A stretch of 64,000 nt of DNA from Candidatus Kaiserbacteria bacterium. GTDB taxonomy: Bacteria > Patescibacteriota > Minisyncoccia > Phycocordibacterales > JABMNX01. Under the pieces are notes generated by a model. It searched no databases and had not been told where the DNA came from. It was given only the letters and a program-made list of their open reading frames with translations. The stretch's first letter is position 1. Every line of letters begins with the position of its first letter. Position numbers and translations under genes: made by a program. Location: the NCBI GenBank assembly GCA_013204405.1, contig JABMNX010000040.1, positions 1,046 to 65,045 on the forward strand, in the 5' to 3' direction. This document shows, in pieces, positions 6,310 to 26,498 of the stretch.

Positions 6310-6416
6310 GAATTAACACAATCATGTCACTATCAATCGGTATGGTCAGAACACAATAAGACATTACAGCACCAAGAATGAGAGACTGATACCATTCTCC
6401 TTTACTATAAAATTAC

Positions 6417-6437
6417 CACCTCCTATGAAAAGAGGTG
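6417..6437. repeat. perfect hairpin CACCTC-ctatgaaaa-GAGGTG
   Basis: Read directly. The loop shares CCTATGAAA with the terminator hairpin at 18553-18577. Confidence 0.5.
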
Positions 6438-6528
6438 TAGATTACGGGTTCAGACCAAAAGAACCTATTTCTTATTAACAGTTGTGGATTTCTCCACTCA
6501 ACTTTACTGGTATCATTTAAGTGTATTA

Positions 6529-6802
6529 GTGGCTACCCCTATTGGGGTAGCGCTGTTGGTTAACAAGGTATCTTTCGAACCTCGCGGACGGTGTATTGAG
6601 GATACCTGCGAGCGTAACTCTCGGTAACAATATGCCCAGTCCTAACATCACGGTAAATAATAACCGTGCGGTATTTTTTTGTTTTCACAATAAAATCTCG
6701 TTAGTTTTCTGATAAACGACCTTATGACGTGTTGAACTCACGTCGAGTTGTCAAACGCTGTTGCTCAACTCGTCAGTCGTTATCTCCCAGAGGGGTAGCC
6801 AC
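6529..6802. repeat. 12-bp inverted repeat pair GTGGCTACCCCT (6529-6540) and AGGGGTAGCCAC (6791-6802) bracketing about 270 bp, possibly a MITE-like element. An internal hairpin GCTACCCC-tatt-GGGGTAGC lies at 6532-6551.
   Basis: Read directly in the sequence. No ORF lies inside. Confidence 0.4.
6651..6685 (+). terminator. putative rho-independent terminator
   Basis: CGGTaaataataACCG hairpin followed by tgcggta and TTTTTTTgTTTT. Confidence 0.4.
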
Positions 6803-6894
6803 CAATAAACTCAAAGAACAGAATAAAGTATTTTTGTTACCTTATATTATACCACACCTACTTCTATTTTTGAATAAAAATAGAAAATCTACAT

Positions 6895-7038
6895 TCATTT
6901 TTTTGTAATTTGACCATTTTTTATTTCATAACCCTCCGAAATAAGGCGGTTATGAATACGACGGAGTACTTCACCAAGAGTTACTAAACTTTCTATGGTT
7001 TCCTTTGAAAAAAGAGGTTCTGGCTTTTCGGTTTTCAT
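6895..7038 (-). CDS. small hypothetical ORF (47 aa), MKTEKPEPLFSKETIESLVTLGEVLRRIHNRLISEGYEIKNGQITKK
   Basis: ATG to TGA on the minus strand, inside the long non-coding stretch. Too short for the ORF track. Possibly a small DNA-binding protein or a gene remnant. Confidence 0.2.
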   Translation of the reverse strand: MKTEKPEPLFSKETIESLVTLGEVLRRIHNRLISEGYEIKNGQITKK

Positions 7039-7124
7039 ATTGTTAAACTAAGGATACAACTGAATATATTACCCGCAAGGGTAGAAGTCTAACCCTTATT
7101 ATATTTATAAGGTATGGCTTAAAA

Positions 7125-7230
7125 CCTATACAGTGCAAAAAACTCCGTCTCGGAGTCGCTGTATAGGTCGTGTGGGGAAACTCATACGGGCAGGAGCAAT
7201 CTTGTCGCAACGGGACGGAGCTTTTTGTAT
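7125..7230 (+). promoter_or_regulatory. structured leader upstream of a small membrane-protein gene, with mutually exclusive pairings
   Basis: Hairpin CCTATACAG...CTGTATAGG (7125-7167) encloses CTCCG-tct-CGGAG (7143-7155). CTCCGTC (7143-7149) can alternatively pair with GACGGAG (7214-7220), which is followed by CTTTTT. Confidence 0.25.
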
Positions 7231-7309
7231 GGAAATAAAAAATAGAACTCAATATCAAAAAAAGGTTACGTGGAAAAAGCACGGGTTTGAGAAAAACTTT
7301 GGTTCAAAA

Positions 7310-7519
7310 ATGTTAAATGGGATTACTTATGGAGTCTTTGGTTTGCCAATACTTCTTGGTATTTTTGCAGTGCCAGTTGCATTAGCGTTGTTGCCAGTAA
7401 CACTTCTTGTTGATTGGTTGTTTCCTAATCTTGTCTTTCCATACAATTTATTTTTCCAACTTCCTATTGCTATATACGTGGTCTGGCAAGTTTGGAAGTT
7501 TTTGGAGGAAAAAGATTAA
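7310..7519 (+). CDS. small hypothetical membrane protein (69 aa)
   Basis: MLNGITYGVFGLPILLGIFAVPVALALLPV... has two TM helices. The listed ORF 7133..7519 starts at GTG inside the structured leader, so the internal ATG at 7310 is preferred. Confidence 0.4.
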   Translation: MLNGITYGVFGLPILLGIFAVPVALALLPVTLLVDWLFPNLVFPYNLFFQLPIAIYVVWQVWKFLEEKD

Positions 7520-7523
7520 CTTT

Positions 7524-8123
7524 ATGAACGAGCAAGAATTATTCAGGAAGGTGTATGGTGAGATACTTGATTATGTGGAGGACGATTTACTTTTGAAATG
7601 TGCTAATTGGGGATATGGCGTTCACCAAACACTTCTGGAAAATAAACAGTATCTTATGCAGGTAGAAAAACAAGGGGAACAAAGTGCTCCGTTTATGTAT
7701 GCTGTGGCAACAGCGGTTATCGTCGGCGAGTTTGCTAAACTTGCATATAGAGACCATTTTTCTGACGAAACAAACCTTCTTTTGGACGAACTAGATTTGG
7801 AGTTTGAACAGGTGAGTGGCTTTCTCAATAAGTATATTGGTAAAGACCGTTTTGAAATGCTGGAGGAAATAAATGGTGTTAGTTTGAAGGACATTTGGGC
7901 TACGATAGGTGAGTGGAAAGAGGAGATATATAAATCACTAGTTCATATTTATAAAGAGCAAGGTGAAAAAGAGTCAGACCATAAAATATATACTTCACTA
8001 CTAACTCTGTTTGAGGAAATGGACGAGGAGACAGGAGATATTCTTCCAAGACTAATGGATAAGACTTTTGGTTATCCAGAAATGGAAGTATATGAGTATA
8101 TAAGTAATGGCTTCAAAAACTAA
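7524..8123 (+). CDS. hypothetical acidic protein (199 aa), island gene 1
   Basis: Internal ATG of ORF 7407..8123, starting 5 nt after the previous stop. No recognisable motif. Confidence 0.5.
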   Translation: MNEQELFRKVYGEILDYVEDDLLLKCANWGYGVHQTLLENKQYLMQVEKQGEQSAPFMYAVATAVIVGEFAKLAYRDHFSDETNLLLDELDLEFEQVSGFLNKYIGKDRFEMLEEINGVSLKDIWATIGEWKEEIYKSLVHIYKEQGEKESDHKIYTSLLTLFEEMDEETGDILPRLMDKTFGYPEMEVYEYISNGFKN

Positions 8124-8125
8124 TT

Positions 8126-8437
8126 ATGAAAGTTTCTATTCCAAAAGAATATCTGGGACATTTTCAAGAAGATATAGCATTCCTTACTTGGTGGAAGAAA
8201 CCAACACTACTTTTAATGAATAAAGACGAAAAAGAGTCCTTTCAAGAAACACTGGAGAAGGGTGTGTGGATACGCTTCGCGGAAGGTTGCGAATGGAGTC
8301 CTCTTTGTATGCCTATCGTTGAATTAGTCATAGAAGACGGAATAATTAGCATTCCTACCCCAGAAGACCCTAGAAGGCGTTTACGAGGTAAAAATAGGGT
8401 ATTTACAAGTGATAGAGCTGGTATTGTTCTATCTTAA
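8126..8437 (+). CDS. hypothetical protein (103 aa), island gene 2
   Basis: Starts 3 nt after gene 1. No recognisable motif. Confidence 0.45.
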   Translation: MKVSIPKEYLGHFQEDIAFLTWWKKPTLLLMNKDEKESFQETLEKGVWIRFAEGCEWSPLCMPIVELVIEDGIISIPTPEDPRRRLRGKNRVFTSDRAGIVLS

Positions 8438-8501
8438 TAAGGTGATTTGTCCCTATTGGAGTGTTATAAATTAGTATTAAGTTCGTGATAAAATAGAAGT
8501 A

Positions 8502-9092
8502 ATGACTAAACTAATGACAGTAACAAAGGAAAACGGGGTGACACAACGTAGTGACATCACTCTTACGAAAGAGACTGCTGTTACGCTGTCACAAAACATA
8601 CTTTTGGGCAGGAGTTTATTGACTAGAGAGGCAGAAAAAAAGGGAGTAGTAGAGCTTATTGGAAACGACGGAGGGCTTGTCACTGTGCCGTATCATACAC
8701 TACGTATGTGGATAGTTAGAAAGAATGTTATACCAGAGACAGGCAATGTTTTGAGGGACATTTTGGACGAAGCAAGAGAGGAATATCGTAACATCAAAAA
8801 GAGGGAAATGGACGAAAAACGGGAGGAAGTAATCGACAAGAAGTTTAATAGGGTTATATCTATGAGGACGAAAGAGCCAGCGGTAGGAATGTTCGGAGTG
8901 GTCAAAGACCCTATAACGAAAAAGCCAGTCTACATTGAGAATGTGAAACTGCTCGCAGAGCAAATGAAGAACGTACGCTTTTTGGCAGAGCGTTTATATT
9001 CAAACCGCTATGGAAAAGTTATGAAGAGTGAAAACAAGAACCTAACACTCTCTCTTTCAGACTTACGGAAGTATGAGGAGAGACAAAAATAA
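8502..9092 (+). CDS. hypothetical protein (196 aa), island gene 3
   Basis: Basic, K/E-rich C-terminus. No recognisable motif. Confidence 0.45.
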   Translation: MTKLMTVTKENGVTQRSDITLTKETAVTLSQNILLGRSLLTREAEKKGVVELIGNDGGLVTVPYHTLRMWIVRKNVIPETGNVLRDILDEAREEYRNIKKREMDEKREEVIDKKFNRVISMRTKEPAVGMFGVVKDPITKKPVYIENVKLLAEQMKNVRFLAERLYSNRYGKVMKSENKNLTLSLSDLRKYEERQK

Positions 9093-9139
9093 TACCTTCT
9101 ATTGCAATGTAAAGAATTGTAAAGTATACTGGTTTAATT

Positions 9140-10090
9140 ATGTCAAACAAAAAACTTGGTAAATTAGACAATGTTAAGTTGAGAGACATTTGGGAAAATG
9201 AGGAAAGAGATTTTTCTTCTTGGCTTATTGAACCAGAAAATCTAGCACTTCTTGGTGGCGAGTTAGGTATAGACATTTCTTTTATTGAAAAAGAAGCTGG
9301 TGTTGGAAAGTTTAGTTTGGATATTCTTGCGAAGGAGGCGAACACGAACAGAAATATAATAATTGAAAACCAGCTTGAAATTACAGACCACGACCACTTA
9401 GGTAAAATTATTACCTATGCGGCGGGGCATAATGCTTCCATTGTGATATGGATTTTTAAGGATATTCGGGAAGAACACAGACAAGCTGTTGATTGGCTGA
9501 ATGAAAATACGAATGAGGAGTTATCGTTTTTTGCTGTGAGAGTTGAGGCGTGGAAAATTGACAATTCTGCCCCTGCACCAAAGTTCCATATTATAAGTAG
9601 ACCAAATGAATGGGCTAAAACTGTCAGGAAAAGTTCTGAAGGTGGCAGTTTGGGTAAGACCAAACTTAAACAATTAGATTTTTGGACTAACTTGAAATCG
9701 TATGCAACAGGTAAAGAAGTCACATTATTTAGTAGGACACCTCGTTCACAACATTGGTATGACGTTTCTATTGGGTCGTCTGAAGCCCATATATCACTGA
9801 CTGTGAACACGAGAGACAAGATATTTTCTTGTGAGTTGTGGATAAATAACAATAAGGATATTTTTAATTTTTTGAAGGAACAAAAAGAAAAAATTGAAAA
9901 GGAATTAGACACCTCTCTTGTGTGGAAAGACGAGAATATGATTGCATCAAGAATAATACAACGACGACCTAATTCTGATTTGGATAGTGAGGAAGAAATG
10001 GAGACCTACTATGATTGGTTTATAGAAAGAACAATAGTTTTCCACAAGGTTTTTGGTAAGTTTCTTAATGATTTTAAGAATGAAAGCTAA
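9140..10090 (+). CDS. DUF4268-type protein with an N-terminal PD-(D/E)xK-like (restriction-endonuclease fold) domain
   Basis: The N-domain motif FSLDILAKE...IIIENQLEITDHDHLGKIITYAAG resembles the nuclease-like family commonly co-encoded with type I R-M systems. Confidence 0.5.
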   Translation: MSNKKLGKLDNVKLRDIWENEERDFSSWLIEPENLALLGGELGIDISFIEKEAGVGKFSLDILAKEANTNRNIIIENQLEITDHDHLGKIITYAAGHNASIVIWIFKDIREEHRQAVDWLNENTNEELSFFAVRVEAWKIDNSAPAPKFHIISRPNEWAKTVRKSSEGGSLGKTKLKQLDFWTNLKSYATGKEVTLFSRTPRSQHWYDVSIGSSEAHISLTVNTRDKIFSCELWINNNKDIFNFLKEQKEKIEKELDTSLVWKDENMIASRIIQRRPNSDLDSEEEMETYYDWFIERTIVFHKVFGKFLNDFKNES

Positions 10091-10262
10091 AGATTTTTAT
10101 ACTGCTCGAAACTTGGCAGACAAGTTAGGAGTAAATATAATGACGATTTATCGTTATATAAAAGCGGGTAAACTTAATGCTCACAAAATTGGAAAGGAGT
10201 TTCGCATTGACAAAACCGAGTTTGAGGCATTTTTAATAAAAACAAGAACAAATAAGAGGTAA
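10080..10262 (+). CDS. excisionase-family (TIGR01764-like) helix-turn-helix DNA-binding protein
   Basis: [46 protein letters not shown] matches the Xis-family HTH pattern. An alternative start lies at 10053. Confidence 0.6.
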
Positions 10263-10281
10263 AAATAATCAAACCTTTATT

Positions 10282-11844
10282 ATGGCAAAAGAAAAAAAAC
10301 AGAGAAAAACAGAGAAAAATGGGGACGAGAACTTTGAAGCACAACTATTCAAGGCGGCTGATAAACTCCGAAAAAATATAGACGCTGGCGAATACAAGCA
10401 CATAGTGCTTGGTCTTATTTTCCTTAAATATATCTCCGACGCTTTCGAAGACCATTATAAGAAACTAAAAGAAGGCAAGGGAAAATATAAAGGAGCAGAC
10501 CCAGAAGATAAGGACGAATATAAAGCTGAAAATGTCTTTTGGACACCACCAGAAGCACGTTGGACATATTTGCACTCACGAGCAAAACTTCCAAGCATAG
10601 GAAAGGATTTGGACGCGGCAATGGAAGTAATAGAAAAAGAAAACCCAACCCTTAAAGGTATCTTAACGAAAGATTATGCTAAACCTAACTTGGATAAAAT
10701 TGCGCTTGGTGAATTAGTTGATTTAATTTCTAATATAGCTCTTGGAAAGGAAACAGATAAGTCGAAAGATATTATCGGACGCGTTTATGAATACTTTCTT
10801 GGCGAGTTTGCTTCACTCGAAGGTAAAAAAGGAGGGCAGTTCTATACACCACGAAGCATTGTTGAGTTAATGGTAGGAATGACAGAGCCATTAAAGGGGC
10901 GTGTTTTTGACCCCGCTTGTGGCTCTGGTGGTATGTTTGTAAGCTCTGAAAGGTTTGTGGAAGCACACCAAGGGCGTGTAGCTGATATTTCAATCTATGG
11001 GCAAGAAAGCAACCACACCACCTACCGTCTTTGCCGTATGAACCTTGCTTTGCGTGGCATAGACGGCTCACAGGTATCTTGGAATAGCGAAGGGTCGTTT
11101 TTGAAGGACGCACACCCAGACCTTAAAGCGGACTATATCCTCGCCAACCCACCATTTAATCAAAGTGATTGGGGTCACGACATTTTGAGAAATGATGTCC
11201 GTTGGAAATATGGAGTACCGCCAGAAGGAAATGCGAACTACGCTTGGTTACAACATATGGTTCACCACCTTGCACCAAAGGGAGTTATGGCAACGGTTCT
11301 CTCTAACGGCTCACTTTCTGTTGGCGGAGTTGAGGGTGAAATGAGGAAGAAATTGGTAGACGACGATTTAGTAGATTGTATTGTGGCTTTACCAAAACAA
11401 CTTTTCTACAACACGGGTATTCCTGCTTGTTTATGGTTCATATCACGAAAACGTCTTGGAAATGGCGATAGAAAACGAACAGGAGAAATCCTTTTTATTG
11501 ACGCTTCAGAAAAGGGATTTATGGCAGACAGAACTCACAGAGAGTTTACACAAGAAGACATACAAGAGATTGCTAATACATATCACGAATGGAGGAAGGA
11601 AGGAGGTAAGTATGAAGACATTAAGGGCTTCTGTAAGTCTGCCTCCTTGGAAGAGGTAGAGAAGAATAATTATGCTCTAACTGCTGGGCGATATGTGGGT
11701 ATTGCAGACGAAGAAGACGACGGAGAACCGTTTGAGGATAAAATGAAACGACTAACAGAAACTTTGAAAGAACAAATGTCAGAAGAGGAAGAATTGAATA
11801 AAGAAATTAAAAAACAACTTAAAAGAGTTGGGTTTGATATATGA
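10282..11844 (+). CDS. hsdM: type I restriction-modification N6-adenine DNA methyltransferase subunit M
   Basis: Motif [13 protein letters not shown] and motif [14 protein letters not shown]. 520 aa. HsdM N-terminal region [25 protein letters not shown]. Confidence 0.92.
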
Positions 11845-12476
11845 GTAAAAATCTACCCTACACAGCACCATACAAAGGAGGAGACGCTTTCAACTGCCCA
11901 AACTGCGGAGCATTTGCTAATCAGTCGTGGGCAGAGCACTGGCATAATAACGAGGCAAGTTTGGACGGTCTTACTACGTCAAGGTGCGCGCGGTGCAATG
12001 ATTATGCGGTATGGAAATACGGAAATCTTATATGTCCTCAAACCTCACCCATAGAGCCACCAAGCAATGATTTACCAACAGAAGTAAAGACTGATTACGA
12101 GGAAGCAGCTAAAATTGTTCAGCAATCACCACGAGCTGCGGCAGCTCTTTTACGCTTAGCTATTCAAAAGCTTTGTGTTCACTTAGGAGGAAGCGGAAAG
12201 AAACTTAACAATGATATAGCTAATCTTGTTAAAGAGGGACTGCCAACTAAAATCCAACAAATGCTTGATACGGTTCGTGTTATAGGTAATCACTCTGTCC
12301 ACGCGGGGGTTATAGACTTAAATGATAATCCTCAAACAGCAGAAACTCTTTTCAAACTTGTAAATATAGTTACGGAGAAAATGATTACAGAGCCAAATGA
12401 AATAGACGCTATATACGATAGTTTACCAGAGGACGATAAGGAACAGATTGGTAAAAGAGATAACACAGAAAAGTAA
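11841..12476 (+). CDS. DUF4145 (HEPN-superfamily) protein with an N-terminal zinc ribbon, embedded between hsdM and hsdS
   Basis: CPNCG...CARC zinc ribbon. LRLAIQKL...[13 protein letters not shown] carries an R-x4-H motif typical of DUF4145/HEPN. Overlaps the hsdM stop by 4 nt. Confidence 0.6.
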
Positions 12477-13637
12477 ATGACAAAGACATTATCAAAATGG
12501 AATAGAGATAAATTAGGAAATACTATTGCTCTTGTAAAAAATAGTTGGCGTCCAAGTGACGAGAACATAAAATATGTTGGGTTAGAACATATAAACCAAG
12601 ACGAGCTTTCCTTAAATGGAGTTGGTGCTTCAGAGGGTTTGGCAAGCAATAAGTTTCGTTTTTCAAAGGGTGACATTCTTTTTGGTAAATTAAGACCATA
12701 CTTTCGCAAGGTGGTTAGACCAAGTTTTAATGGGGTGTGTTCGACAGATATTTGGGTTATGCGAGCTAAAGAGGGATATGACCAATCCTATTTGTTTTAT
12801 TTTATGGCTAATCCTGTTCTCATAAGTAAATCTATGGGAGCAAGCACAGGAACTCATATGCCGAGAGCTGATTGGAATTATCTGTCAGGGACAGAGTGGT
12901 ATTTTCCAGAATTATCAGAACAAAAAGAAATTGCGGAAGTACTTTCAAGCTTGGACGATAAAATAGAGCTTTTACAAAAGCAAAGCGAAACATTAGAACA
13001 AATAGCACAAGCACTTTTTAAGGAGTGGTTTTTGGAGTTTAATTTTCCAGATAAAAATGGAAAGCCGTATAAAAAGTCGGGTGGAAAAATGAGTGACAGT
13101 GAATTAGGTGAGATACCAGAGGGGTGGGAGGTTGGTTTTCTTAATGATATTTCGGAGATTACTTCTGGAAAGAGACCAGACAATAGTGTTGATAAAAAAA
13201 CTAAAACACACCAGATTCCTCTTGTTGGAGCTACGAGAATTATGGGGTATGTAGAAGAACCTTTGTATGACGAAGACATATTAGTTATTGGTAGGGTTGG
13301 AACACACGGCGTTATTCAAAGATTTTACGATAGAGTTTGGGTGTCGGACAATGCTTTTGTTATAAAATCAAAAGATTTTGTTTTTTTATACCACGTTCTT
13401 AAAAATATAAATTATGAAAAGTTAAATAAAGGAGCTGTACAGCCACTAATAACCCAGACTGATTTGAAAAATTATAAACTAGCAATGCCAAACGACAATG
13501 TTATGGATTTATTTGGAATGGCTGGTTCAGAAGTTTTCTTAAAATTAAAAGAGAACAGTTTTCAGGTTAACGTTCTTAGTAAAATCAGAGATTTTCTGTT
13601 ACCAAAACTAATGAACGGAGAAGTTCGGGTAAAATAA
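12477..13637 (+). CDS. hsdS: type I restriction-modification specificity subunit S
   Basis: 386 aa in two-TRD arrangement with conserved central and distal repeats (LPSLEEQKEIAEVLSSLDDKIELL-like segment: SEQKEIAEVLSSLDDKIELLQKQ). Confidence 0.88.
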   Translation: MTKTLSKWNRDKLGNTIALVKNSWRPSDENIKYVGLEHINQDELSLNGVGASEGLASNKFRFSKGDILFGKLRPYFRKVVRPSFNGVCSTDIWVMRAKEGYDQSYLFYFMANPVLISKSMGASTGTHMPRADWNYLSGTEWYFPELSEQKEIAEVLSSLDDKIELLQKQSETLEQIAQALFKEWFLEFNFPDKNGKPYKKSGGKMSDSELGEIPEGWEVGFLNDISEITSGKRPDNSVDKKTKTHQIPLVGATRIMGYVEEPLYDEDILVIGRVGTHGVIQRFYDRVWVSDNAFVIKSKDFVFLYHVLKNINYEKLNKGAVQPLITQTDLKNYKLAMPNDNVMDLFGMAGSEVFLKLKENSFQVNVLSKIRDFLLPKLMNGEVRVK

Positions 13638-13646
13638 GACATATGA

Positions 13647-14558
13647 GTGACTATGAAAAATATAAAACTGGCAATAGAGGAAAATGAAAAGTGGACTAAC
13701 TTGCACTCATACATTGAGTTAATAGAACAAAATTGTGATAGTAATCAGGGAGTTGCGCTTGACGGGGCAAAGAGTTTACTTGAAAGTATTTCAAAAACTA
13801 TTTTAGCTGACCGTGGAATTGTTTATGCTCCAGACGCGTCTCTTGGACGCCTTGTAAAAGACGCCGTTAGGTCACTTCCTTCTTTTGATATATTAGATAA
13901 ACAAGACGCTGATGTTGTGGTTCGTATAGTGAGTGGCTTGGAAAGCGTCTCGTCCAGTATTGGTTCTCTCCGAAACAGGCACGGAACGGTAGGACACGGA
14001 AAAGATTTACACGAAGAGCGAGAATTAGATAGACGTCTCGCGAACCTTGCAATTTCTTGTGTGGACAATCTAGCTGGTTTTCTAATGGAAGCACATTCCT
14101 CTGAACCAGACGGAATAAAAAGACTTCGCTATGAAGATTTCTCTGGTTTCAATGAAAGATTTGACGAACAACAGGAGCAAATAGAGATTGAAGGTATCGT
14201 AATAAGTCCAAGTCGCGCTCTTTTCGACCAAGATATTGAAGCGTTCAAGGAGACAGCAATTGCTTTTGGACAAAAAGAGAAGTTGGTTGACGATTTGGAG
14301 ACAAGTTTTAATTTTGTTACCACACACAACATCATTGAAGGTCTATCAAAACACAAAGATTTTTCAGAGGCACAAGTAAGACGTTTAGTATCTATATGCT
14401 CTACTAATAATCAGGTCGAGTGGATTATAGGAGACCCTGATGTTCATAAGTTTTATTCAGGAATCCTCTCAAATTACAGACATTATATGCCAACAGAACA
14501 AGCAGAGTACCTTTTTCTTTTATTAAATGAAAATAAATCTGAAGACCTTGATTTTTAG
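13647..14558 (+). CDS. hypothetical 303-aa protein in the PrrC-equivalent slot (between hsdS and hsdR), with a candidate HEPN-like R-x5-H motif
   Basis: SLRNRHGTVGHGKD at residues 108-121 (nt ~13971). No P-loop. Acidic C-terminal half. Confidence 0.4.
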   Translation: MTMKNIKLAIEENEKWTNLHSYIELIEQNCDSNQGVALDGAKSLLESISKTILADRGIVYAPDASLGRLVKDAVRSLPSFDILDKQDADVVVRIVSGLESVSSSIGSLRNRHGTVGHGKDLHEERELDRRLANLAISCVDNLAGFLMEAHSSEPDGIKRLRYEDFSGFNERFDEQQEQIEIEGIVISPSRALFDQDIEAFKETAIAFGQKEKLVDDLETSFNFVTTHNIIEGLSKHKDFSEAQVRRLVSICSTNNQVEWIIGDPDVHKFYSGILSNYRHYMPTEQAEYLFLLLNENKSEDLDF

Positions 14559-14602
14559 TACTAAGTGGACTATTTAGTGAATAGTTGTTCTAATAGATAA
14601 AA

Positions 14603-17600
14603 ATGACAAAAATATACGAAGACGACATAGAAAAATGGGTTATAGAACTTCTTGAAAAAGAGGGATATGTTTATTTATCCCCACAGGAGCAGGAAGTAGA
14701 AAGACCTGACCTAAAGGAAGTTATCCTAAAAGGACGCTTGGAACAGGCGGTGGCTCGGCTTAACTCCAATATCTCTCCAGAAGCCCGCGAGGAGGCAATA
14801 AAGCGGGTTTTTAACCTCGTTCCACAGCATTTGGTAGAAAGTAATGAGACATTTCAAACAATGCTCACAGACGGCGTGAGTGTGGAAGTCCCAGCCGAGC
14901 AAGGTGGCACTCGTGGAGAAATAGTTCACCTTGTTGATTTTGAAAATCCTACAAACAACGACCTTATAGTAACTAACCAATTTACTATTCCTTATGACCA
15001 TACTAGCAAGAGACCTGACGTAGTACTTTTGATAAATGGGCTTCCTCTTGCCGTAATTGAACTCAAAAATCCTGCTGACGAAAATGCTACGGTTCATAAG
15101 GCATTTACACAACTTCAAAACTACAAAGACGCAGTGCCACAACTTTTTGTATACAACGGTATTTTAATCGCTTCTGACGGATTAGACGGACGGGTAGGTT
15201 CTCTAACTGCTCCGTGGGAGAGATTTTATTTATGGAGAGAGCCAGATAAAAAAGAGAAAGAAAAAGTAAAACCACAAATGGAAACGATTATAAAAGAAAT
15301 GCTTCAGCCAGAAGTTCTTCTTGATTTAATAAGAAACTTTACTGTCTTTGAAAAAGTGAAGAAAGAAGATAAGAAAACAGGAAGAGTTGTTGTAGAGACA
15401 ATTAAAAAAGTGGCGGCGTATCACCAGTATTATGTAGTGAATAAAGCCATTACTTCTACTATAGAGGCGACAAGTGAGAAGGGAGAGCGAAAAATAGGAG
15501 TGGTTTGGCATACACAAGGTTCAGGAAAATCTCTTTCAATGGTTTTTTATACAGGAAAAGCTGTTCTCTCTCTTGGTAATCCAACAGTTGTCGTCATTAC
15601 AGACAGAAATGATTTGGACGACCAACTTTTTGGAACATTTTCAGCAAGCAAAGGACTTTTAAGACAAGAGCCAATTCAGGCAAAAAGTAGAGAGCACTTA
15701 AAAGAACTTTTACAAACAGCAGGTGGTGGAATTATCTTTACGACTATTCAAAAGTTTTTTCCAGAGAACGGAGGCGAAACTTATGATGAGTTAACAGATA
15801 GGAGAAATGTTGTAGTCATTGCAGACGAAGCTCACCGTTCACAATATGGTTTTGCGGCGAGAACTGTATTTAAGGACGAGCAAGCTATTACAAGATATGG
15901 TAATGCAAAGTATTTACGGGACGCTTTACCAAATGCTTCGTTTATTGGCTTTACTGGAACACCTATTGAAAGTGCAGATAAATCTACACCAGCAGTGTTT
16001 GGTAAATATATTGACGTATATGATGTTCAAGACGCGGTAGAGGACGGGGCAACCGTGCCTATTTACTACGAAAGTCGATTAGTAAAAGTTCATTTGCCAG
16101 TAGAAGAGAGTATGAAAATTGACGCGGAAGTTGAGGCGGTTGCCGAAGGGGTAGAGTTTACTGCTAAAGAGAAAGCAAAAGCAAAATGGGCGCAACTAGA
16201 GGCGGTAATTGGTAATCGTGCAAGACTTAAAGAGATTGCCAAAGATTTGGTGGAGCACTACGAAGCACGACAAGAAGTGAATATAGGAAAAGCAATGATA
16301 GTTGCTATGAGTAGGAGGATTGCTGTTGAACTGTATGAAGAAATCATTGAACTTCGTCCTGAATGGCACAACAAGGATTTTGACAAAGGAGCAATAAAGG
16401 TTGTGATGACTGCGAACTCTTCTGACCCAAAAGAGTTCCAGCCACATCATACAAATAAACAAGACAGACAAAGATTAGCTACTCGTTTCAAAGACGCAGA
16501 TAATGAACTAAAAATTGTTGTTGTTTGTGATATGTGGCTTACAGGATTTGATGTGCCAAGTTTACATACTATGTATGTAGATAAGCTAATGCGAGGACAC
16601 AACTTAATGCAAGCGATAGCTCGTGTAAACCGAGTGTTCAGAGATAAAGAAGGGGGACTTATTGTTGATTATATTGGTTTTGCGGCAGATTTACAGAAGG
16701 CACTTGCTATTTATACACAAAGCGGAGGAAAGGGAGACCCTACACTAACCCAACAAAAAGCTATTGAAGTGATGTTGGAGAAATATGAAGTGGTAAAACA
16801 AATGTTCCATAACTTTGATTATCGCCGATACTTTACTGTTGATACACAAGGAAAGCTAGAGGTTATTTTGGAAGCACAGGAACATATTCTTGCACAAGAT
16901 AATAAAGAAGGTAAAAGTGGAAAAGAAAAGAAGGAGGGTATACAAGAAAGATATACACGAGAAGTAACTGCACTCTCAAAAGTATTTGCTATCGCCATTC
17001 CAAGCGAAGAAGCTTTTTCTATACGAGACGAAGTAGCATTTTTTCAAGCCATTAAATCACGTTTAATAAAGTTTGACCCAGACCCAGAAGGCAGACGGGA
17101 AGATATAGATACTGCTATCAGGCAGATTATAGACCAAGCCATTGTTACTGAAGGTGTGGTGGATATTTTTGCAGCTGCAGGTATACAAAAGCCAGACCTT
17201 TCTGTTCTCTCTGACGAGTTCTTATCAGAGGTACAGAATATGAAGCACAGAAACTTGGCAATGGAATTATTGAAACGTGTAATTGACGACGAAATAAAGG
17301 CACGGTTAAGAAAGAACTTTATTCAAGGAAAGAAGTTATCTGAAATGCTTGAAAAGACGCTTAAAAAATACCAAAACAATCTTCTTACTGCTTCTGAAGT
17401 AATTCAAGAGTTGATTAAGTTGGCGAAGGAAATAAAAGACGCAGACGCCCGTGGCGAGGACTTAGGGCTATCAGAGGACGAGATAGCTTTCTATGACGCT
17501 TTGAGTGACAACGGTAGTGCAAAAGAGGTATTGGGAGATAACACACTTCGTGACTTAGCGAGAGTTCTTGTAGAGAAGGTCAGGGGTAGTGCAACGATTG

Positions 17601-17752
17601 ACTGGACTATCAGAGAGAATGTAAGAGCGAAGCTCCGTGTGCTTGTGAAAAGAACACTTAATCAGTTTGGGTATCCGCCAGACAAACAAGCTATTGCCAC
17701 AGAGTTTGTATTGAAGCAAGCAGAACTCTTTGCTGACGAGTGGACTAAATAG
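14603..17752 (+). CDS. hsdR: type I restriction enzyme endonuclease/helicase subunit R
   Basis: 1049 aa. Walker [16 protein letters not shown] box [11 protein letters not shown], motif [10 protein letters not shown], plus a C-terminal HsdR tail. Confidence 0.92.
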
Positions 17753-17872
17753 TTATGGAGACAAAAAAGAAAGTGGAATGGACAAAGGAAGAAAGAGACA
17801 GAATAGTCGGTTTCTTCGACCTTTTGATAAAAGTGGACAAGAGGCAAAATCCACATTTGTATAAAAAACAAA

Positions 17873-18520
17873 ATGAGCGGCAATCCAATAAATGAATTAG
17901 AAGAAAAGTTCAATGCTTTTATAAACGAAAAAGACGACCATAGATTTTTCCTGCGTCTTTCAAAGTATTTTCAATTTATTGAAGATACATTTCCTTTGGA
18001 CAACATAGTAAAAAAACTTTTCTCTTCTCCTTCTGAACTTTCTATGTTTAAGAATATAGAAGGTTTGTATAATTCTATCGTCCTACATAAATCACCTACT
18101 CGTTTTTCAATTAGTCCAAGTTCTGTGGACGGGTCTGGTATCCGTACTTTACACAAGCGTCTTATTGAAGAAGCGAGAAAATCAGGTCTTGCGAGGGTGT
18201 CTGTAATAGAAAGAAGTGTTGACGGTAGTTATACATTCAACGGGGCGACAATACCTTTTGGCAGAAAAACAATTAAATATCACATATTCGATTATCTATA
18301 TAACTCACCTAGCCACAGAGTTTCTTATGCGGAAATAGATAAATATCTTGTAAGGAATGGGTTTGGTGTAATGAAGAATAACGAAAAAAGAAGTGAAAGA
18401 ATAAGGAGGGCTGTGACAGGTTATCGTGACAAACAAAAAAAGCATTCACAGGTAGGCAATATATCCATATTAGAAATAGAGCACAATTTTGGAGTTAAGC
18501 TGAACAATCCTTTGGTTTGA
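17873..18520 (+). CDS. hypothetical protein (215 aa)
   Basis: No motif recognised. Last gene before the terminator. Confidence 0.45.
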   Translation: MSGNPINELEEKFNAFINEKDDHRFFLRLSKYFQFIEDTFPLDNIVKKLFSSPSELSMFKNIEGLYNSIVLHKSPTRFSISPSSVDGSGIRTLHKRLIEEARKSGLARVSVIERSVDGSYTFNGATIPFGRKTIKYHIFDYLYNSPSHRVSYAEIDKYLVRNGFGVMKNNEKRSERIRRAVTGYRDKQKKHSQVGNISILEIEHNFGVKLNNPLV

Positions 18521-18552
18521 GTTTGTGTTGTAGATAAAAAATAACGAACCTA

Positions 18553-18585
18553 GAAAAGCCCTATGAAAGGGGCTTTTTTGTTTTG
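18553..18585 (+). terminator. rho-independent terminator
   Basis: GAAAAGCCC-tatgaaa-GGGGCTTTT followed by TTTTGTTTTG. Confidence 0.6.
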
Positions 18586-18961
18586 TATACCAAAAAAGGA
18601 CTATTAGGGACTACTAAACCTGACTGGGAAAATATACATAGCACAACCACTTCGTGTGCAGTGCTTACAAGAGAAAAAGAAGACACGGTGTTTCGGGGAA
18701 GTCCGTGGATAAATAAAAACTTCTCCGTAAACGGAAGCTCTCTTCAGGCACAAATGCGAACGCTGGGGAAAATGTTGACCACTCGTCCCAGCCGTCTAAT
18801 TTGTGTCGGAATGGAGTAGGTGTGGGGAATGCGAGAGGTCGTTCATTCCTATCACATCAACTTTCTTCTCTCACATAAAACAACTCACAAATCCTATTTA
18901 GTAGGAAAGTGGGGCATATGAACAAAACTAGAAAAATAAAGTCAAAGATTATATAATTACT

Positions 18962-19147
18962 ATGCTACGCGAGAACAGTCAACTTCATAATAAAAAAATT
19001 GAACCCAGAAAGGGGCAACGAACTTCCTCGCGTAGCAATGTGAGGTCTCGTTGTCCCTCTTTGCGTTATGATTTTGTTAAAGAAAATCAAGAGAATGTTA
19101 ATAGAGCTTTTGATGTCCTTTTTGAAGCTATTACAAACGTGAGATAA
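18962..19147 (+). CDS. small basic ORF (61 aa) directly upstream of the recombinase gene, a possible recombination directionality factor
   Basis: MLRENSQLHNKKIEPRKGQRTSSRSNVRSR... A TATAAT-like box lies at about 18952. No homology recognised. Confidence 0.2.
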   Translation: MLRENSQLHNKKIEPRKGQRTSSRSNVRSRCPSLRYDFVKENQENVNRAFDVLFEAITNVR

Positions 19148-19155
19148 TTTTATTT

Positions 19156-20769
19156 ATGAATACACCACAGAAAACAACTAAACTTATTGCTATGTATGCT
19201 CGTGTTTCAACCTCCCACCAAGAGGAAGAACAGACTATAGAAAACCAAATGAACGCAATGAAAGAGTATATTGAAGGTAAGGGGTATACCGTGGTGCGTG
19301 TGTATAAAGACGAAGGGTGGAGTGGTGATAGTCTTATACGCCCAGCTCTTGATAGATTAAGGCAAGACGCTAAAGACAAAATCTGGGAGGGTGTACTTAT
19401 ATATGACCCTGACAGACTGGCTCGTCGATACTCATATCAAGAACTTGTTTCTGACGAACTTAGAGAAGCGGGTATTGAAGTTATGTATGTTACGGTTTCA
19501 GCTCCTAAAAACAATGAAGACAAAATACTTCACGGAGTAAGAGGATTGTTTGCAGAATACGAGAGAGCAAAAATTACTGAAAGATTTAGGTTGGGTAAAC
19601 TACGTAAAATAAAGAATGGTCACATTTTAGTAAGTGAACCGCTGTATGGATATTCTTATGTACCCAAAAATGATAAACAGCACGGTTATTATGAAATTAA
19701 CGAACAAGAAGCTAGTGTTGTGAGGCAGATTTTTTCTTGGGTTGCAGACGAAAAAATGACATTACGAGGAATTGTTAGGAGGTTACAGAAAGAGAATATA
19801 AAACCACGAAAAAGTAAGCGTGGGGTTTGGAGTACAAGCACATTAAGCACAATGCTACGAAATGAGGCATACATTGGCGAGGCACACTGGGGCAGTTCTT
19901 ATGCTGTTATTCCAGAAAAGCCACTGAAGGAGGAAAAATATAAGAAGATAAAGAAAAGTAGTCGGAGAATAAAACCGAAAGAGGAATGGCTAATTATTCC
20001 TGTTCCAGTAATAGTTGGTAAAGATATCTTTGAGAGAACACGAGCACAACTGAAAAGGAACTTTGCGCAGTGTAAAAGAAACAAAAAGAACGATTATCTA
20101 CTGTCCAGTCTTATTTATTGTGAGTGTGGTCGTAGGAGGGCTGGGGAGGGGGCTATGAATGGTAAACATTTATATTATCGTTGTACTGATAGGGTACATA
20201 GTTTCCCGCTAGCACCGACTTGCAAGGAAGGAGGTATAAACGCGAGAGTGTCAGATAAATTAGTGTGGGAGAAAATCTCAAAGCTAATGACTTCACCTGA
20301 ATTATTGAATAAGCAAATTGAAAGGTGGAACAGAAGCCAGAAAACAAAAACTAGTGGGACTATATTTAATGTTGAGTCTTTGGAGACTGAATTAAATAAG
20401 CTAAAGAAACAGGAAGATAGATACAACAAAGCGTATGGTGCTGGAGCATTTAGTGTTGAGCAACTAAAGGAGTACACATCTCCTCTGAAACAGCATATTA
20501 GTGAGGTAGAGATACAAATTGCGGAAACAAGAGAACAAGAAAAAGAGCAAAAGATTAGTAAATTACCAAGTGAAGCAGATGCCAAAGTATTTGCAGAGAG
20601 GGTTAAAGAAAATATAAATAACTTGAACTTTTCCTCAAAACGAGAGATAGTATTGTCTGCGGTGGAGAAAATCGTAGGCACACAAGAAAAGTTATGTGTA
20701 TCTGGGTATATCCCCGTAGATAATTATGTCTCATTCAAAACTAACCATCGGAATCGTTGGACTCCCTAA
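19156..20769 (+). CDS. large serine recombinase (resolvase/invertase N-domain, recombinase domain and zinc-ribbon)
   Basis: IAMYARVSTSHQEE (catalytic Ser), LDRLARR-like DPDRLARRY, and C-x2-C...C cysteines (CECGRR...YYRCTDR). 537 aa. Confidence 0.85.
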   Translation: MNTPQKTTKLIAMYARVSTSHQEEEQTIENQMNAMKEYIEGKGYTVVRVYKDEGWSGDSLIRPALDRLRQDAKDKIWEGVLIYDPDRLARRYSYQELVSDELREAGIEVMYVTVSAPKNNEDKILHGVRGLFAEYERAKITERFRLGKLRKIKNGHILVSEPLYGYSYVPKNDKQHGYYEINEQEASVVRQIFSWVADEKMTLRGIVRRLQKENIKPRKSKRGVWSTSTLSTMLRNEAYIGEAHWGSSYAVIPEKPLKEEKYKKIKKSSRRIKPKEEWLIIPVPVIVGKDIFERTRAQLKRNFAQCKRNKKNDYLLSSLIYCECGRRRAGEGAMNGKHLYYRCTDRVHSFPLAPTCKEGGINARVSDKLVWEKISKLMTSPELLNKQIERWNRSQKTKTSGTIFNVESLETELNKLKKQEDRYNKAYGAGAFSVEQLKEYTSPLKQHISEVEIQIAETREQEKEQKISKLPSEADAKVFAERVKENINNLNFSSKREIVLSAVEKIVGTQEKLCVSGYIPVDNYVSFKTNHRNRWTP

Positions 20770-21832
20770 TGTGGGGAAGTCCACATTATTTAATGCATTA
20801 ACAAAGCGCTCTGTACCAGCGGAGAATTTTCCATTTTGTACAATTGACCCTTCTGTAGGTGTTGTTGCAGTCCCAGACAGTAGACTTGAAAAACTTACCA
20901 CGCTTTCAAATTCACAAAAGACTATACCAACTGCAATTGAGTTTGTTGATATTGCAGGGCTTGTAAAAGGAGCATCCGATGGAGAAGGTCTTGGAAATAA
21001 ATTCCTTTCACATATTAGAGAAGTAGACGCAATAGCACACGTGGTGCGACTTTTTGAGGATACCGACATAACACATGTTCACGGCACTATTAATCCAGTT
21101 GATGATATTACAGTGATTAATCTAGAACTTATTATTGCTGATATGCAAACAGCCGCTAAACGGATGCAGTCAATAGAGCGAGAAGTGAGACGTGGAGATA
21201 AAGAAGCAGTTCTTGAGCACCATACTGTTACTAAAATTTTAAAGACTCTTGAGGCAGGGAATCTTGCTCGATCAACTGAACTTAATGAAAAAGAAGAAGA
21301 GGTTATTAAAGGACTCCACCTTTTGACTATGAAGCCAATGTTGTATGTCCTCAATAAGAAGGCAAATGCACTTAACTTGGACGAAGAGAACGGAGAACGG
21401 TATGAAAAACTCCTGCAATTTATTGAGGATTCACATGCACAGTATGTAATTATTGATGCGGGAGTAGAACATGAGCTTAAAGATGTTTCTCCTGAAGATA
21501 AAGATGAGTTTCTTCGTGAGTTTGGAGTAGTCGAAGATGGAGTAAGTGCATTTATTCAAATGGGATACAGATTACTTGATTTGATTACATTCTTTACGAC
21601 AGGTGAAGATGAAACACGGGCATGGACAGTACTACGGGATAGTTCTGCTCCTGATGCAGGAGCTGCTATCCATTCTGACTTTCGAGATAAATTTATTAGA
21701 GCTGACGTTGTTGCGTACGAGAAGCTTATGGAGGCAGGTTCATACGCCATTGCACGGGAAAAGGGTTCGGTGCGCACCGAAGGGAAGGCATATGTTGTGC
21801 AAGATGGCGACATTATAGAATTCAGAATATAA
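20726..21832 (+). CDS. ychF: ribosome-binding ATPase YchF
   Basis: IGIVGLPNVGKSTLFNALT G1 motif, DIAGLVKGAS G3 region and a C-terminal TGS domain. 368 aa. Confidence 0.93.
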   Translation: MSHSKLTIGIVGLPNVGKSTLFNALTKRSVPAENFPFCTIDPSVGVVAVPDSRLEKLTTLSNSQKTIPTAIEFVDIAGLVKGASDGEGLGNKFLSHIREVDAIAHVVRLFEDTDITHVHGTINPVDDITVINLELIIADMQTAAKRMQSIEREVRRGDKEAVLEHHTVTKILKTLEAGNLARSTELNEKEEEVIKGLHLLTMKPMLYVLNKKANALNLDEENGERYEKLLQFIEDSHAQYVIIDAGVEHELKDVSPEDKDEFLREFGVVEDGVSAFIQMGYRLLDLITFFTTGEDETRAWTVLRDSSAPDAGAAIHSDFRDKFIRADVVAYEKLMEAGSYAIAREKGSVRTEGKAYVVQDGDIIEFRI

Positions 21833-26400: not shown

Positions 26401-26498
26401 CTTTGGTTCGAAAGGATGAGGGTCTTTCTAAGTGGATAGAGGGGGAGCCAAAGAGGGTGATATATGTTGAGAATAAGCTTATTAATCTAGTGTTTTAA
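23496..26498 (+). CDS. leuS: leucyl-tRNA synthetase carrying a ~210-aa insertion with a Ham1/RdgB (ITPase)-like domain
   Basis: HIGH motif PSGNLHIGH. ZN-1 knuckle CSSC...CERC. NWIGRSEGAEIDF. T-rich VFTTRPDTLYGATYMVLAPEH. Editing motif GTGAIMAVPAHDERD. KMSKS motif NKMSKSKGN. Between GAEIDFPL and VFTTRPDTL lie residues ~237-447 (nt ~24204-24837). In that insert, EVVFATNNHGK, EEDRPTLEENAEKKAR, LPVLADDSG and EWHNAFCLI align to RdgB/Ham1 motifs. Confidence 0.9.
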   Translation: MASYNHEEIEKKWQKKWKESGIYDTENRDTTKGKEYVLVEWPYPSGNLHIGHWFAFAVVDIYVRARRMHGKQVFFPMGFDAFGLPAENAAIKNNLNPKEWTDKNIAYMKGQLESMGNAFSWDKTTSSTDPEYYKWTQWMFTKFFENDIAYRGEGIVNWCSSCNTVLANEQVLPEGDCERCGNQVEKKKMDEWKMRITKYADRLIDDLDSLDWPESIKESQRNWIGRSEGAEIDFPLSLSLYGGEVVFATNNHGKLERMQKLFDAAGFSIKLKTPLEIGVKDFNVEEDRPTLEENAEKKARALAEKTDLPVLADDSGFFIDGEEIDPVTVKRNALAGQSEEGMTIEEVGNLMITYYQNVAKARGGSVDAEWHNAFCLITSKKIVSHTQTTRPVTLTDEPKGVMNPYLPLRSLYISKVTGKHVLLQSDEEELEELNPIIKGIQNLFTPSIKVFTTRPDTLYGATYMVLAPEHPLVEKFKGVVSNWDEIEAYQKETATKDDIVRTTENKEKTGVKLEGVLAINPANQEEIPVFIADYVLSGYGTGAIMAVPAHDERDFAFAKKFKLATKEVVSNKLTDENIFTGEGTLINSGEFDGLTSEEAKGKITKKVGGEMKSTYRLRDWSVGRQRYWGVPIPIVYDKEGKAHPVPEKHLPWLLPEDVDFRPTGEPPLAKSKELLERTEKIFGDGWTPEVETMDTFVDSSWYFLRYIDNENGTEFSSMEKQKEWMPIDIYFGGAEHTTMHLLYSRFWQKVLFDLGLVTESEPYKRRINRGLVLGPDGNKMSKSKGNVIDPDEQVKRLGSDAVKMYLAFMGPYGETTNYPWDLGGIVGIRRFLERVDKMIDKENIMDSEDVHLERHLHQTIKKVGGDIELYKFNTAISQLMIFLNQMQTLKVSKNTLEIFLRLLAPFAPHLTEELWERLGNMTSIHLEEWPEFDESKLVSDTVSIAVQIHGKVRGLVESPSGSSEDEVLALVRKDEGLSKWIEGEPKRVIYVENKLINLVF

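Follow-up and report, generated by a model that had tools for sequence, protein, structure and literature searches.

Type I restriction-modification (R-M) operons are known to house unrelated defense genes. In the type IC EcoprrI locus (hsdM-hsdS-prrC-hsdR), the gene for the RNase PrrC lies between hsdS and hsdR (PMC3710099), and a 2013 survey of HEPN domains reported "at least 16 clades of HEPN proteins linked to R-M systems" and listed DUF4145 as "in operon with R-M". Two other defense systems, DarTG2 (with RptR) and TgvAB, are embedded in type I operons and act independently of the host R-M system, and rlo genes of Campylobacter in type I operons are cited in the TgvAB preprint. Here we describe a related but more crowded locus in a 64,000-nt stretch of DNA (the window) from Candidatus Kaiserbacteria, a bacterium of the candidate phyla radiation (CPR/Patescibacteria). 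NCBI lists proteins under this organism name that are 100% identical to those of the locus. Seven closely packed genes occupy positions 9140-17752 of the + strand and encode, in order, a DUF4268 protein (orf1), a small Xis-like helix-turn-helix (HTH) protein (orf2), HsdM, a DUF4145 protein (orf4), HsdS, a 301-aa protein (orf6) and HsdR. In our assessment these genes form, with a probability of about 0.75, one operon that defends against phages in several layers and lies on a probable integrative island. The original prediction, made from the sequence letters and an open reading frame (ORF) list, had already read the locus as composite defense rather than plain R-M, and this holds, given full-length PADLOC matches to PD-T7-4 and PDC-S11 alongside the three hsd genes. 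The gene order, coordinates and strand given at that time likewise agree with the ORF list.

The nested architectures that most resemble this one are the RptR-HsdM-HsdS-DarTG2-HsdR-M48 island of enteropathogenic E. coli (EPEC) and the type I R-M-TgvAB locus of V. cholerae pathogenicity island VPI-2. Both are led by a gene for a small DNA-binding protein, carry an unrelated defense system between the hsd genes of a type I operon, and lie on a horizontally acquired island, features in which they resemble the window. The cargo differs, being a toxin-antitoxin system (DarTG2) in EPEC and a GmrSD-like pair (TgvAB) in V. cholerae, as against two HEPN RNases and a DUF4268 nuclease in the window. The small DNA-binding proteins differ as well, RptR having a new fold whereas orf2 belongs to HTH_17. 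Finally, two slots within the window operon and the position upstream of it are all filled, unlike in the EPEC and VPI-2 islands.

The product of orf4 (11841-12476, +; 211 aa) is most readily understood by comparison with RAZR, the name given in a 2026 Nature paper to PD-T7-4, which is built of a zinc finger and a divergent HEPN domain (PMC13017515). Activation of RAZR requires its assembly into a 24-mer ring around the rings of a phage portal or recombinase; once active, it cuts RNA non-specifically and thereby aborts infection, and substitutions R146A and H154A abolish defense (PMC13017515). The E. coli protein is self-sufficient, being expressed from its own promoter and responding directly to the phage ring proteins (PMC13017515). 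E. coli RAZR and its homologues have also been reported to overlap an integrase gene (PMC9519451). Orf4 matches DUF4145 in Pfam (3.5e-18) and PD-T7-4 in PADLOC (2.4e-82, residues 7-209 on model positions 4-209 of 211). Its sole PDB match is entry 9y9c, a 24-chain assembly (1.6e-55; 46.9% identity over 194 aligned residues), which is annotated just as "DUF4145 domain-containing protein"; we take it to be RAZR because the positions of R146 and H154 and the 24-chain stoichiometry match the RAZR ring of PMC13017515. Judged by these alignments, orf4 is a full-length homologue of RAZR/PD-T7-4. It resembles RAZR of E. coli UMB1727 in length (211 aa versus 219 aa), in the succession of an N-terminal Cys4 zinc ribbon and a C-terminal DUF4145 HEPN domain, and in having R146 and H154 at identical positions. 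It differs in lying inside a type I operon and being translationally coupled to hsdM, while E. coli RAZR is stand-alone in function, in belonging to a clade with an additional histidine at position 151, and in having a CPR bacterium as host. The original prediction had treated the occurrence of DUF4145 as a separate gene as noteworthy; in fact the stand-alone combination of zinc ribbon and DUF4145 is the norm in this large family (5633 matches), and it is the architecture of RAZR itself.

Six residues of orf4 do not vary among 37 homologues and coincide in the alignment with their E. coli RAZR counterparts: the cysteines C19, C22, C49 and C52 of the two CxxC motifs (residues 19-22 and 49-52), R146 and H154. 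The segment [13 protein letters not shown], which begins at residue 144, contains R146 (codon at nt 12276), H151 and H154. An R-x4-H motif ([14 protein letters not shown]146/H151, nt ~12276) following a CxxC...CxxC ribbon had been proposed for this protein, and its letters and positions are correct; the pairing of R146 with H151 is not, as H151 varies and H154 is the invariant histidine. Position 151 is a histidine in the closest (CPR) homologues only, is E, N or D in the others of the 37, and is Q in E. coli RAZR. We therefore rejected H151 as the catalytic histidine in favor of H154, whose replacement by alanine abolishes defense in RAZR. R146/H151 is probably not the catalytic pair, because R146 and H154 are invariant while 151 varies; by homology, the pair is most likely R146/H154. 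As a side observation, the presence of both H151 and H154 (window 12291-12302, residues 151-154) places a canonical Rx4H inside the Rx7H of the family in the closest CPR clade, where the Rx4H may be a clade-specific coincidence or an extra feature.

The R-M core of the locus contains all three type I subunits, as identified by Pfam, PADLOC, TIGRFAM and motif matches. HsdM (10282-11844, +; 520 aa), the methyltransferase subunit, is an N6-adenine methyltransferase with an HsdM_N domain (Pfam HsdM_N, 1.1e-25; N6_Mtase, 7.3e-112; PADLOC MTase_I, 5e-205); its translation shows FDPACGSGG and NPPF motifs, and its match to the NCBIfam hsdM equivalog falls below the curated cut-off. The specificity subunit HsdS (12477-13637, +; 386 aa) has two target-recognition domains, with Pfam Methylase_S in two stretches and PADLOC Specificity_I (1.8e-82) across residues 7-386. 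HsdR (14603-17752, +; 1049 aa), the restriction/translocase subunit, combines a PD-(D/E)xK nuclease with an SF2 motor (Pfam HSDR_N, 6.6e-48; SWI2_SNF2, 2.8e-78; T1RH-like_C, 1.3e-128; TIGR00348, 1.6e-194) and shows PD...ELK, GSGKS and DEAH motifs. An FxGxG motif is likewise visible in the Hsd translations. Among solved structures, its best PDB matches are EcoR124I/II HsdR (1e-33, over residues 104-486 only), and the type I enzyme of the window thus appears closest to the EcoR124/IC-like type. By gene content, HsdM-HsdS-HsdR is a complete type I system. Frameshifted or mis-split genes were ruled out: the alignment of orf4 with RAZR runs from one end of the 219-aa chain to the other, and neither HsdM nor HsdS is truncated. 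The searches proposed at the outset thus recovered all of the expected families (DUF4268, DUF4145 and HsdM/S/R) in Pfam and PADLOC, in genes that are full length for their families rather than fragments of fused ones.

The seven genes are tightly spaced. Orf1 and orf2 overlap by 11 nt, 19 nt separate orf2 from hsdM, and hsdM in turn overlaps orf4 by 4 nt; hsdS follows orf4 with a gap of 0 nt, and the intervals before orf6 and hsdR measure about 15 nt and 44 nt. The 4-nt overlap of the hsdM stop with the orf4 start, which had been pointed out previously, is the ATGA at 11841-11844, and hsdS begins at the base right after the orf4 stop. Longer starts appear in the ORF list for the HTH gene (10053) and the Abi_C-type gene orf6 (13647), but the true starts are likely 10080 (giving 60 aa) and 13653 (giving 301 aa), according to gene calls on an identical public contig. 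After hsdR comes orf8 (17873-18520, +; 215 aa), which has no family match and is the last gene ahead of the sole strong terminator-like site of the region, an intrinsic-terminator-like hairpin of 12 pairs followed by a T run (18551-18580, +); orf8 is possibly the final gene of the operon. Weaker terminator-like sites on the + strand in 9140-18520 have stems of 7 pairs (10395), 6 pairs (12881) and 5 pairs (17806).

The second putative HEPN RNase is encoded by orf6 (13653-14558, +), in the slot between hsdS and hsdR. Two candidate HEPN RNases had been anticipated in the operon; the gene then listed as "unknown" is predicted to encode an Abi_C-type HEPN protein (Pfam Abi_C, 1e-13, residues 68-147). 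The HEPN domain is N-terminal (approximately residues 30-150) and is followed by a helical C-terminal domain, whose sole similarity is to the C-terminus of the PADLOC candidate PDC-S34. R107, N108 and H115 are invariant in 26 relatives, and the domain has the all-alpha HEPN fold with conserved Arg and His that is expected of the Abi_C family. AbiJ of Lactococcus lactis (Abi_C, PF14355) has the same conserved R-N...H motif in its HEPN domain, but there an N-terminal sensor domain precedes the HEPN domain, whereas in orf6 the HEPN domain comes first and is joined to a different C-terminal domain. We rejected orf6 as a true AbiJ, given that only its HEPN part matches (model positions 172-273 of 281), that Pfam gives no AbiJ_NTD match, and that the HEPN domain is N-terminal. 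Pfam and domain analysis also revealed no ATPase domain in orf6, which sets it apart from the PrrC type (ABC-ATPase followed by a C-terminal HEPN domain), and a PDB sequence search returned chance-level matches only.

The orf6 family is small (33 clusters, mostly CPR) and strictly placed. Its genes are flanked by hsdS and hsdR in 31 of 32 loci, among which are the window, locus L017, six independent contigs found by exact look-up and 22 of 23 metagenome loci, the one exception among these 23 being a weak partial match. In most loci, hsdS ends about 12-30 nt upstream of the orf6-family gene, and the flanking genes represent one type I lineage (59-76% identity to the HsdM of the window, and 44-75% to its HsdR). 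The slot between hsdM and hsdS (M-S slot) of these operons is usually empty, and sometimes holds RhuM/Fic, Schlafen/AlbA_2 ATPase or unassigned genes in place of RAZR. The slot between hsdS and hsdR (S-R slot) that the orf6 family occupies is the position of prrC. The likeness to the EcoprrI locus thus consists of a HEPN RNase gene between hsdS and hsdR of an IC-like system, and of a strict association of RNase family and R-M lineage; the difference is that PrrC is an anticodon nuclease with an N-terminal ABC-ATPase, and orf6 an ATPase-less protein in which an Abi_C HEPN domain comes first and is followed by a helical domain.

The association of RAZR with R-M genes was examined in 80 loci encoding RAZR homologues, taken from species-representative genomes, by tblastn with the window proteins and Pfam scans of the immediate neighbors. 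A type I hsdM is directly upstream of RAZR in about 14 of the 80, roughly one in six, and most of these loci that reach far enough also have hsdS and hsdR downstream. Counted by upstream neighbor, N6_Mtase is found in 14 of 71 cases, ten of them with HsdM_N. The remaining homologues are in miscellaneous contexts, and roughly 80% of close RAZR homologues are not beside R-M genes. The order in the R-M-embedded loci is hsdM-RAZR-(0-2 small genes)-hsdS-X-hsdR, where X, in the S-R slot, is variable defense cargo: Shedu SduA_C (L011, L040), PIN_12 (L012), a ClpP-like SDH protease (L015), AbiJ_NTD4 (L019) or an orf6-type Abi_C protein (L017). The ATGA overlap of hsdM and RAZR is kept in the window and in five other loci (L004, L005, L011, L012 and L014), of which L011, L012 and L014 are labelled Gammaproteobacteria or Pseudomonadales. 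A neighbor-joining tree places the embedded RAZRs in two regions, of which one is a clade almost wholly R-M-embedded. Because the HsdM proteins of RAZR-associated operons are anywhere from 24% to 75% identical to that of the window, RAZR is tied to more than one type I family. The window is, as far as these comparisons reach, a conserved core of hsdM-hsdS-orf6-hsdR, with an HTH_17 gene ahead of it in several loci, to which are added two facultative elements, a RAZR gene that fills the M-S slot and a DUF4268 gene ahead of the core. A separate observation concerns the other end of the operon: several type I operons that include RAZR have an additional gene overlapping the hsdR end (L005:15813-16631, L011:16101-17015, L014:15746-16531 and L057:16137-16856), and the one in L005 is Peptidase_S49/ClpP-like, which recalls the M48 peptidase after hsdR in the EPEC RptR island.

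The gene at the upstream end, orf1 (9140-10090, +; 316 aa), encodes a protein of a large, well conserved family (5089 matches). It matches DUF4268 in its C-terminal half (Pfam, 1.3e-26, residues 178-308) and PDC-S11 end to end (PADLOC, 4.5e-115, residues 2-310). The N-terminal half models as a NucS-like PD-(D/E)xK fold, in line with the single PD-(D/E)xK-like nuclease proposed originally, with a Gln for the motif Lys, and D61, E76, N77 and Q78 are invariant in the homologues. A PDB sequence search with orf1 gave chance-level matches only. DUF4268 is an accessory domain of GmrSD type IV enzymes (PMC4619093). The nucleases MdgA and MdgB contain it too; they confer protection from T4 but not from T4-GT7, and the E77A substitution inactivates MdgA. 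MdgA/MdgB and the GmrSD-DUF4268 fusions resemble orf1 in that a nuclease domain is joined to DUF4268; the catalytic Glu of MdgA is E77 and the invariant Glu of orf1 is E76. GmrSD differs from orf1 in having ParB-like/HNH-type domains, in contrast to the NucS-like PD-(D/E)xK domain modelled here. By analogy with these enzymes, orf1 is most likely a modification-dependent DNase. Its homologues stand alone in two loci (L089 and L090), and a DUF4268 gene is found just after hsdR in another (L106). In a further locus (L088:7001-13763), a DUF4268 gene with 66% identity overlaps the HTH_17 gene behind it by the same 11 nt, and the two precede an N6_N4_Mtase gene and a ResIII gene (type III-like R-M). 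The DUF4268-HTH pair consequently looks like a cassette that joins different R-M types.

Read from the genes present, the families they belong to, their intact catalytic residues and operon-like packing, and the recurrence of the architecture described above, the locus would work in several layers. In the first, the type I enzyme HsdM-HsdS-HsdR would methylate self DNA and cut unmethylated incoming DNA. In the second, two metal-independent HEPN RNases would act as abortive-infection backstops. One of these, the RAZR homologue, would by homology to E. coli RAZR be switched on only by assembly around a large phage protein of ring shape, either a portal or a recombinase that forms rings, and would then cleave RNA non-specifically and stop translation. 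The other, the Abi_C HEPN protein orf6, which would be an obligate passenger of the type I lineage in the prrC position, would provide a further suicide arm. In the third layer, the DUF4268 protein would cut DNA, with modified phage DNA missed by the type I enzyme as a plausible substrate, and the small Xis-like HTH protein would regulate transcription of the operon. We read the layers as probably independent because of precedent: E. coli RAZR works alone, and embedded DarTG2 and TgvAB act apart from their host type I systems.

Several points weigh against this multi-layer, single-operon reading. PDC-S11 is a candidate defense family only, and the Q78 of orf1 stands in place of the canonical Lys of the PD-(D/E)xK motif. 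The link from orf1 to MdgA rests on common domain content and a similar position of the catalytic Glu (E77 versus E76). Orf4 is just 47% identical to E. coli RAZR, and RAZR-type triggers in a CPR host are assigned to it by homology. With respect to a single transcript, promoter-like matches are not enriched over shuffled sequence (32 versus 35.4), and because they are no commoner than in shuffled sequence, the single-operon reading rests on gene spacing. The best sigma-70-like match of the region (TTGGCA-17-TATAAT, 11/12) is found at 10113-10141 (+), within the HTH gene and 5' of hsdM, and is flanked by short imperfect inverted repeats (10105-10131 and 10135-10159); this site may be an internal promoter or operator, or may be due to chance. 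A search for operator-like repeats upstream of orf1 and of hsdM found short imperfect palindromes only, none of them convincing.

The strongest alternative, which we regard as possible though doubtful, is a guard arrangement of the PrrC kind, in which one or both HEPN RNases are accessory R-M subunits, held inactive by the type I enzyme and freed when a phage anti-restriction protein (Ocr- or Stp-like) disables it. Such an arrangement fits the confinement of the orf6 family to a single type I lineage and, in 31 of 32 loci, to the position that prrC has in type IC EcoprrI (PMC3710099); it also fits the match of the window HsdR to EcoR124, a type IC enzyme, as its closest counterpart. The 2013 HEPN survey proposed coupling of this kind for HEPN proteins associated with R-M, and in particular for AbiJ-type proteins that are without N-terminal sensor domains. 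For the RAZR homologue, the grouping of R-M-embedded RAZRs in two regions of the tree and the retained ATGA overlap with hsdM in the window and five loci point in the same direction. However, orf6 is without the ABC-ATPase domain that regulates PrrC, and its strict co-location with the lineage can be explained by co-inheritance alone. The self-sufficiency of E. coli RAZR, with its own promoter and its direct trigger in a phage ring protein, argues against a guard role for orf4, as do the roughly 80% of close RAZR homologues that do not adjoin R-M genes, and the embedded DarTG2 and TgvAB systems likewise act independently of host R-M.

A bolder version of coupling can be formulated, and we think it rather unlikely to hold as a whole. 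In this proposal, a type I lineage that is widespread and mostly carried by CPR bacteria would have the orf6-type protein as an obligate fourth part of its R-M system, and this protein would be an ATPase-less functional analogue of PrrC that senses inactivation of the Hsd enzyme and then halts translation. An R-M-associated, hsdM-coupled subfamily of RAZR would be recruited to the same complex, and its activation would depend on both the R-M enzyme and phage ring proteins.

The layered reading of the locus also assigns a regulatory role to the small protein orf2 (10080-10262, +; 60 aa), whose start overlaps the end of orf1 by 11 nt. Orf2 is a DNA-binding protein of the excisionase/MerR-like HTH_17 family (Pfam HTH_17, 1.9e-11; NCBIfam TIGR01764 "excise", 1.3e-11; PADLOC mad1, 7.9e-10; PHROG excisionase families), and in the PDB it matches the phage excisionase Gp37 best (4j2n, 3.9e-4). 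An HTH_17 gene is directly upstream of hsdM in L083/L084 and upstream of the type III-like methylase in L088, and weaker tblastn matches to orf2 are found upstream of hsdM in L005 and L097. By analogy, orf2 is most likely a transcriptional regulator of the operon, functionally like RptR or the C proteins. We rejected homology of orf2 to RptR, whose fold is of no known class according to the RptR paper: the sole significant PDB match of orf2 is 4j2n, and RptR (PDB 9R2Z) was not returned even at E values up to 1. It might instead be argued that orf2 serves the serine recombinase of the island as its excisionase (recombination directionality factor) and is not an operon regulator, given its matches to TIGR01764, the PHROG excisionase families and the phage Xis protein Gp37, and a serine recombinase 9 kb downstream on the same strand. 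We consider this improbable. A regulator is the likelier role because HTH_17 genes recur directly upstream of methylase genes and because orf2 matches MAD1, which belongs to a similar HTH-methylase pairing in the MADS system; in the unrelated loci L083/L084 and L088, moreover, no recombinase was seen in the stretch examined.

Downstream of the operon, a large serine recombinase that assigns the locus to a probable integrative island (19156-20769, +; Pfam Resolvase, Recombinase and Zn_ribbon_recom; PHROG 95 integrase, 1.1e-94) overlaps with its 3' end the start of ychF (20726) by 44 nt. Upstream of the operon are four ORFs (window 7133-9092, +; 128, 238, 103 and 196 aa), with a flavodoxin-like gene further out; neither these four nor orf8 have matches in Pfam, NCBIfam, PADLOC or PHROGs. 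The sole relative of orf8 among the loci compared is a 43%-identical stretch in L003, 1.8 kb downstream of the closest RAZR homologue, in a locus without R-M genes. A 14,466-nt public contig (L001) is identical to window 6311-20776, starting 2 nt after the stop of the flavodoxin-like gene and ending in the ychF P-loop. This extent is compatible with a probable, separately assembling integrative island of approximately 14 kb, weakly so since the right-hand break is in the conserved ychF P-loop. Direct repeats of the att type were sought at the island ends, where the longest shared words are 11 nt and uninformative, and searches for island backbone proteins among the fetched loci gave essentially no matches. 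Large serine recombinases are also present within a few kb of related hsdM-hsdS-Abi_C-hsdR operons in L085 and L093, which suggests that this operon type is often carried on serine-recombinase islands. We find it very improbable that the extra genes are selfish cargo, toxin-like modules that stabilize the island or are simply carried along by a mobile operon, with scarcely any benefit against phages, as might be thought from the adjacent recombinase, its recurrence by related operons and the highly variable cargo of both slots, because RAZR has demonstrated anti-phage activity (PMC13017515), the invariance of catalytic residues across diverged homologues speaks for selection on activity, and no antitoxin-like partner is evident for either HEPN gene.

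Outside the island, at window 23496-26498 (+), we observed a 1000-aa leucyl-tRNA synthetase with a match to Pfam Ham1p_like (ITPase family) at residues 245-321 (8e-15, model positions 1-73 of 186). The match sits between those to the synthetase catalytic domain and may represent an unusual insertion domain.

Every component of the locus is a described family, and the nesting of defense genes in type I operons is already documented by PrrC, DarTG2/RptR, TgvAB and the 2013 survey, so the locus is a further instance of known nesting, here in Candidatus Kaiserbacteria. Three aspects are modestly new. The first is a sizeable RAZR subfamily at a conserved, translationally coupled position between hsdM and hsdS; the text of the RAZR paper contains no occurrence of "type I" (PMC13017515). 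The second is the orf6 family with its strict occupancy of the S-R slot, and the third is the combination of three accessory modules with one R-M system in a CPR genome.

Neither the RAZR subfamily nor the orf6 family alters current concepts, and the orf6 family is a tractable candidate for an ATPase-less guard of the PrrC type. CPR/Patescibacteria are described as largely without CRISPR (PMC4742961). In this Kaiserbacteria genome, the locus offers a clean natural example of what is predicted to be layered immunity within one operon, where DNA restriction would be combined with a probable second DNA nuclease and two suicide RNases.

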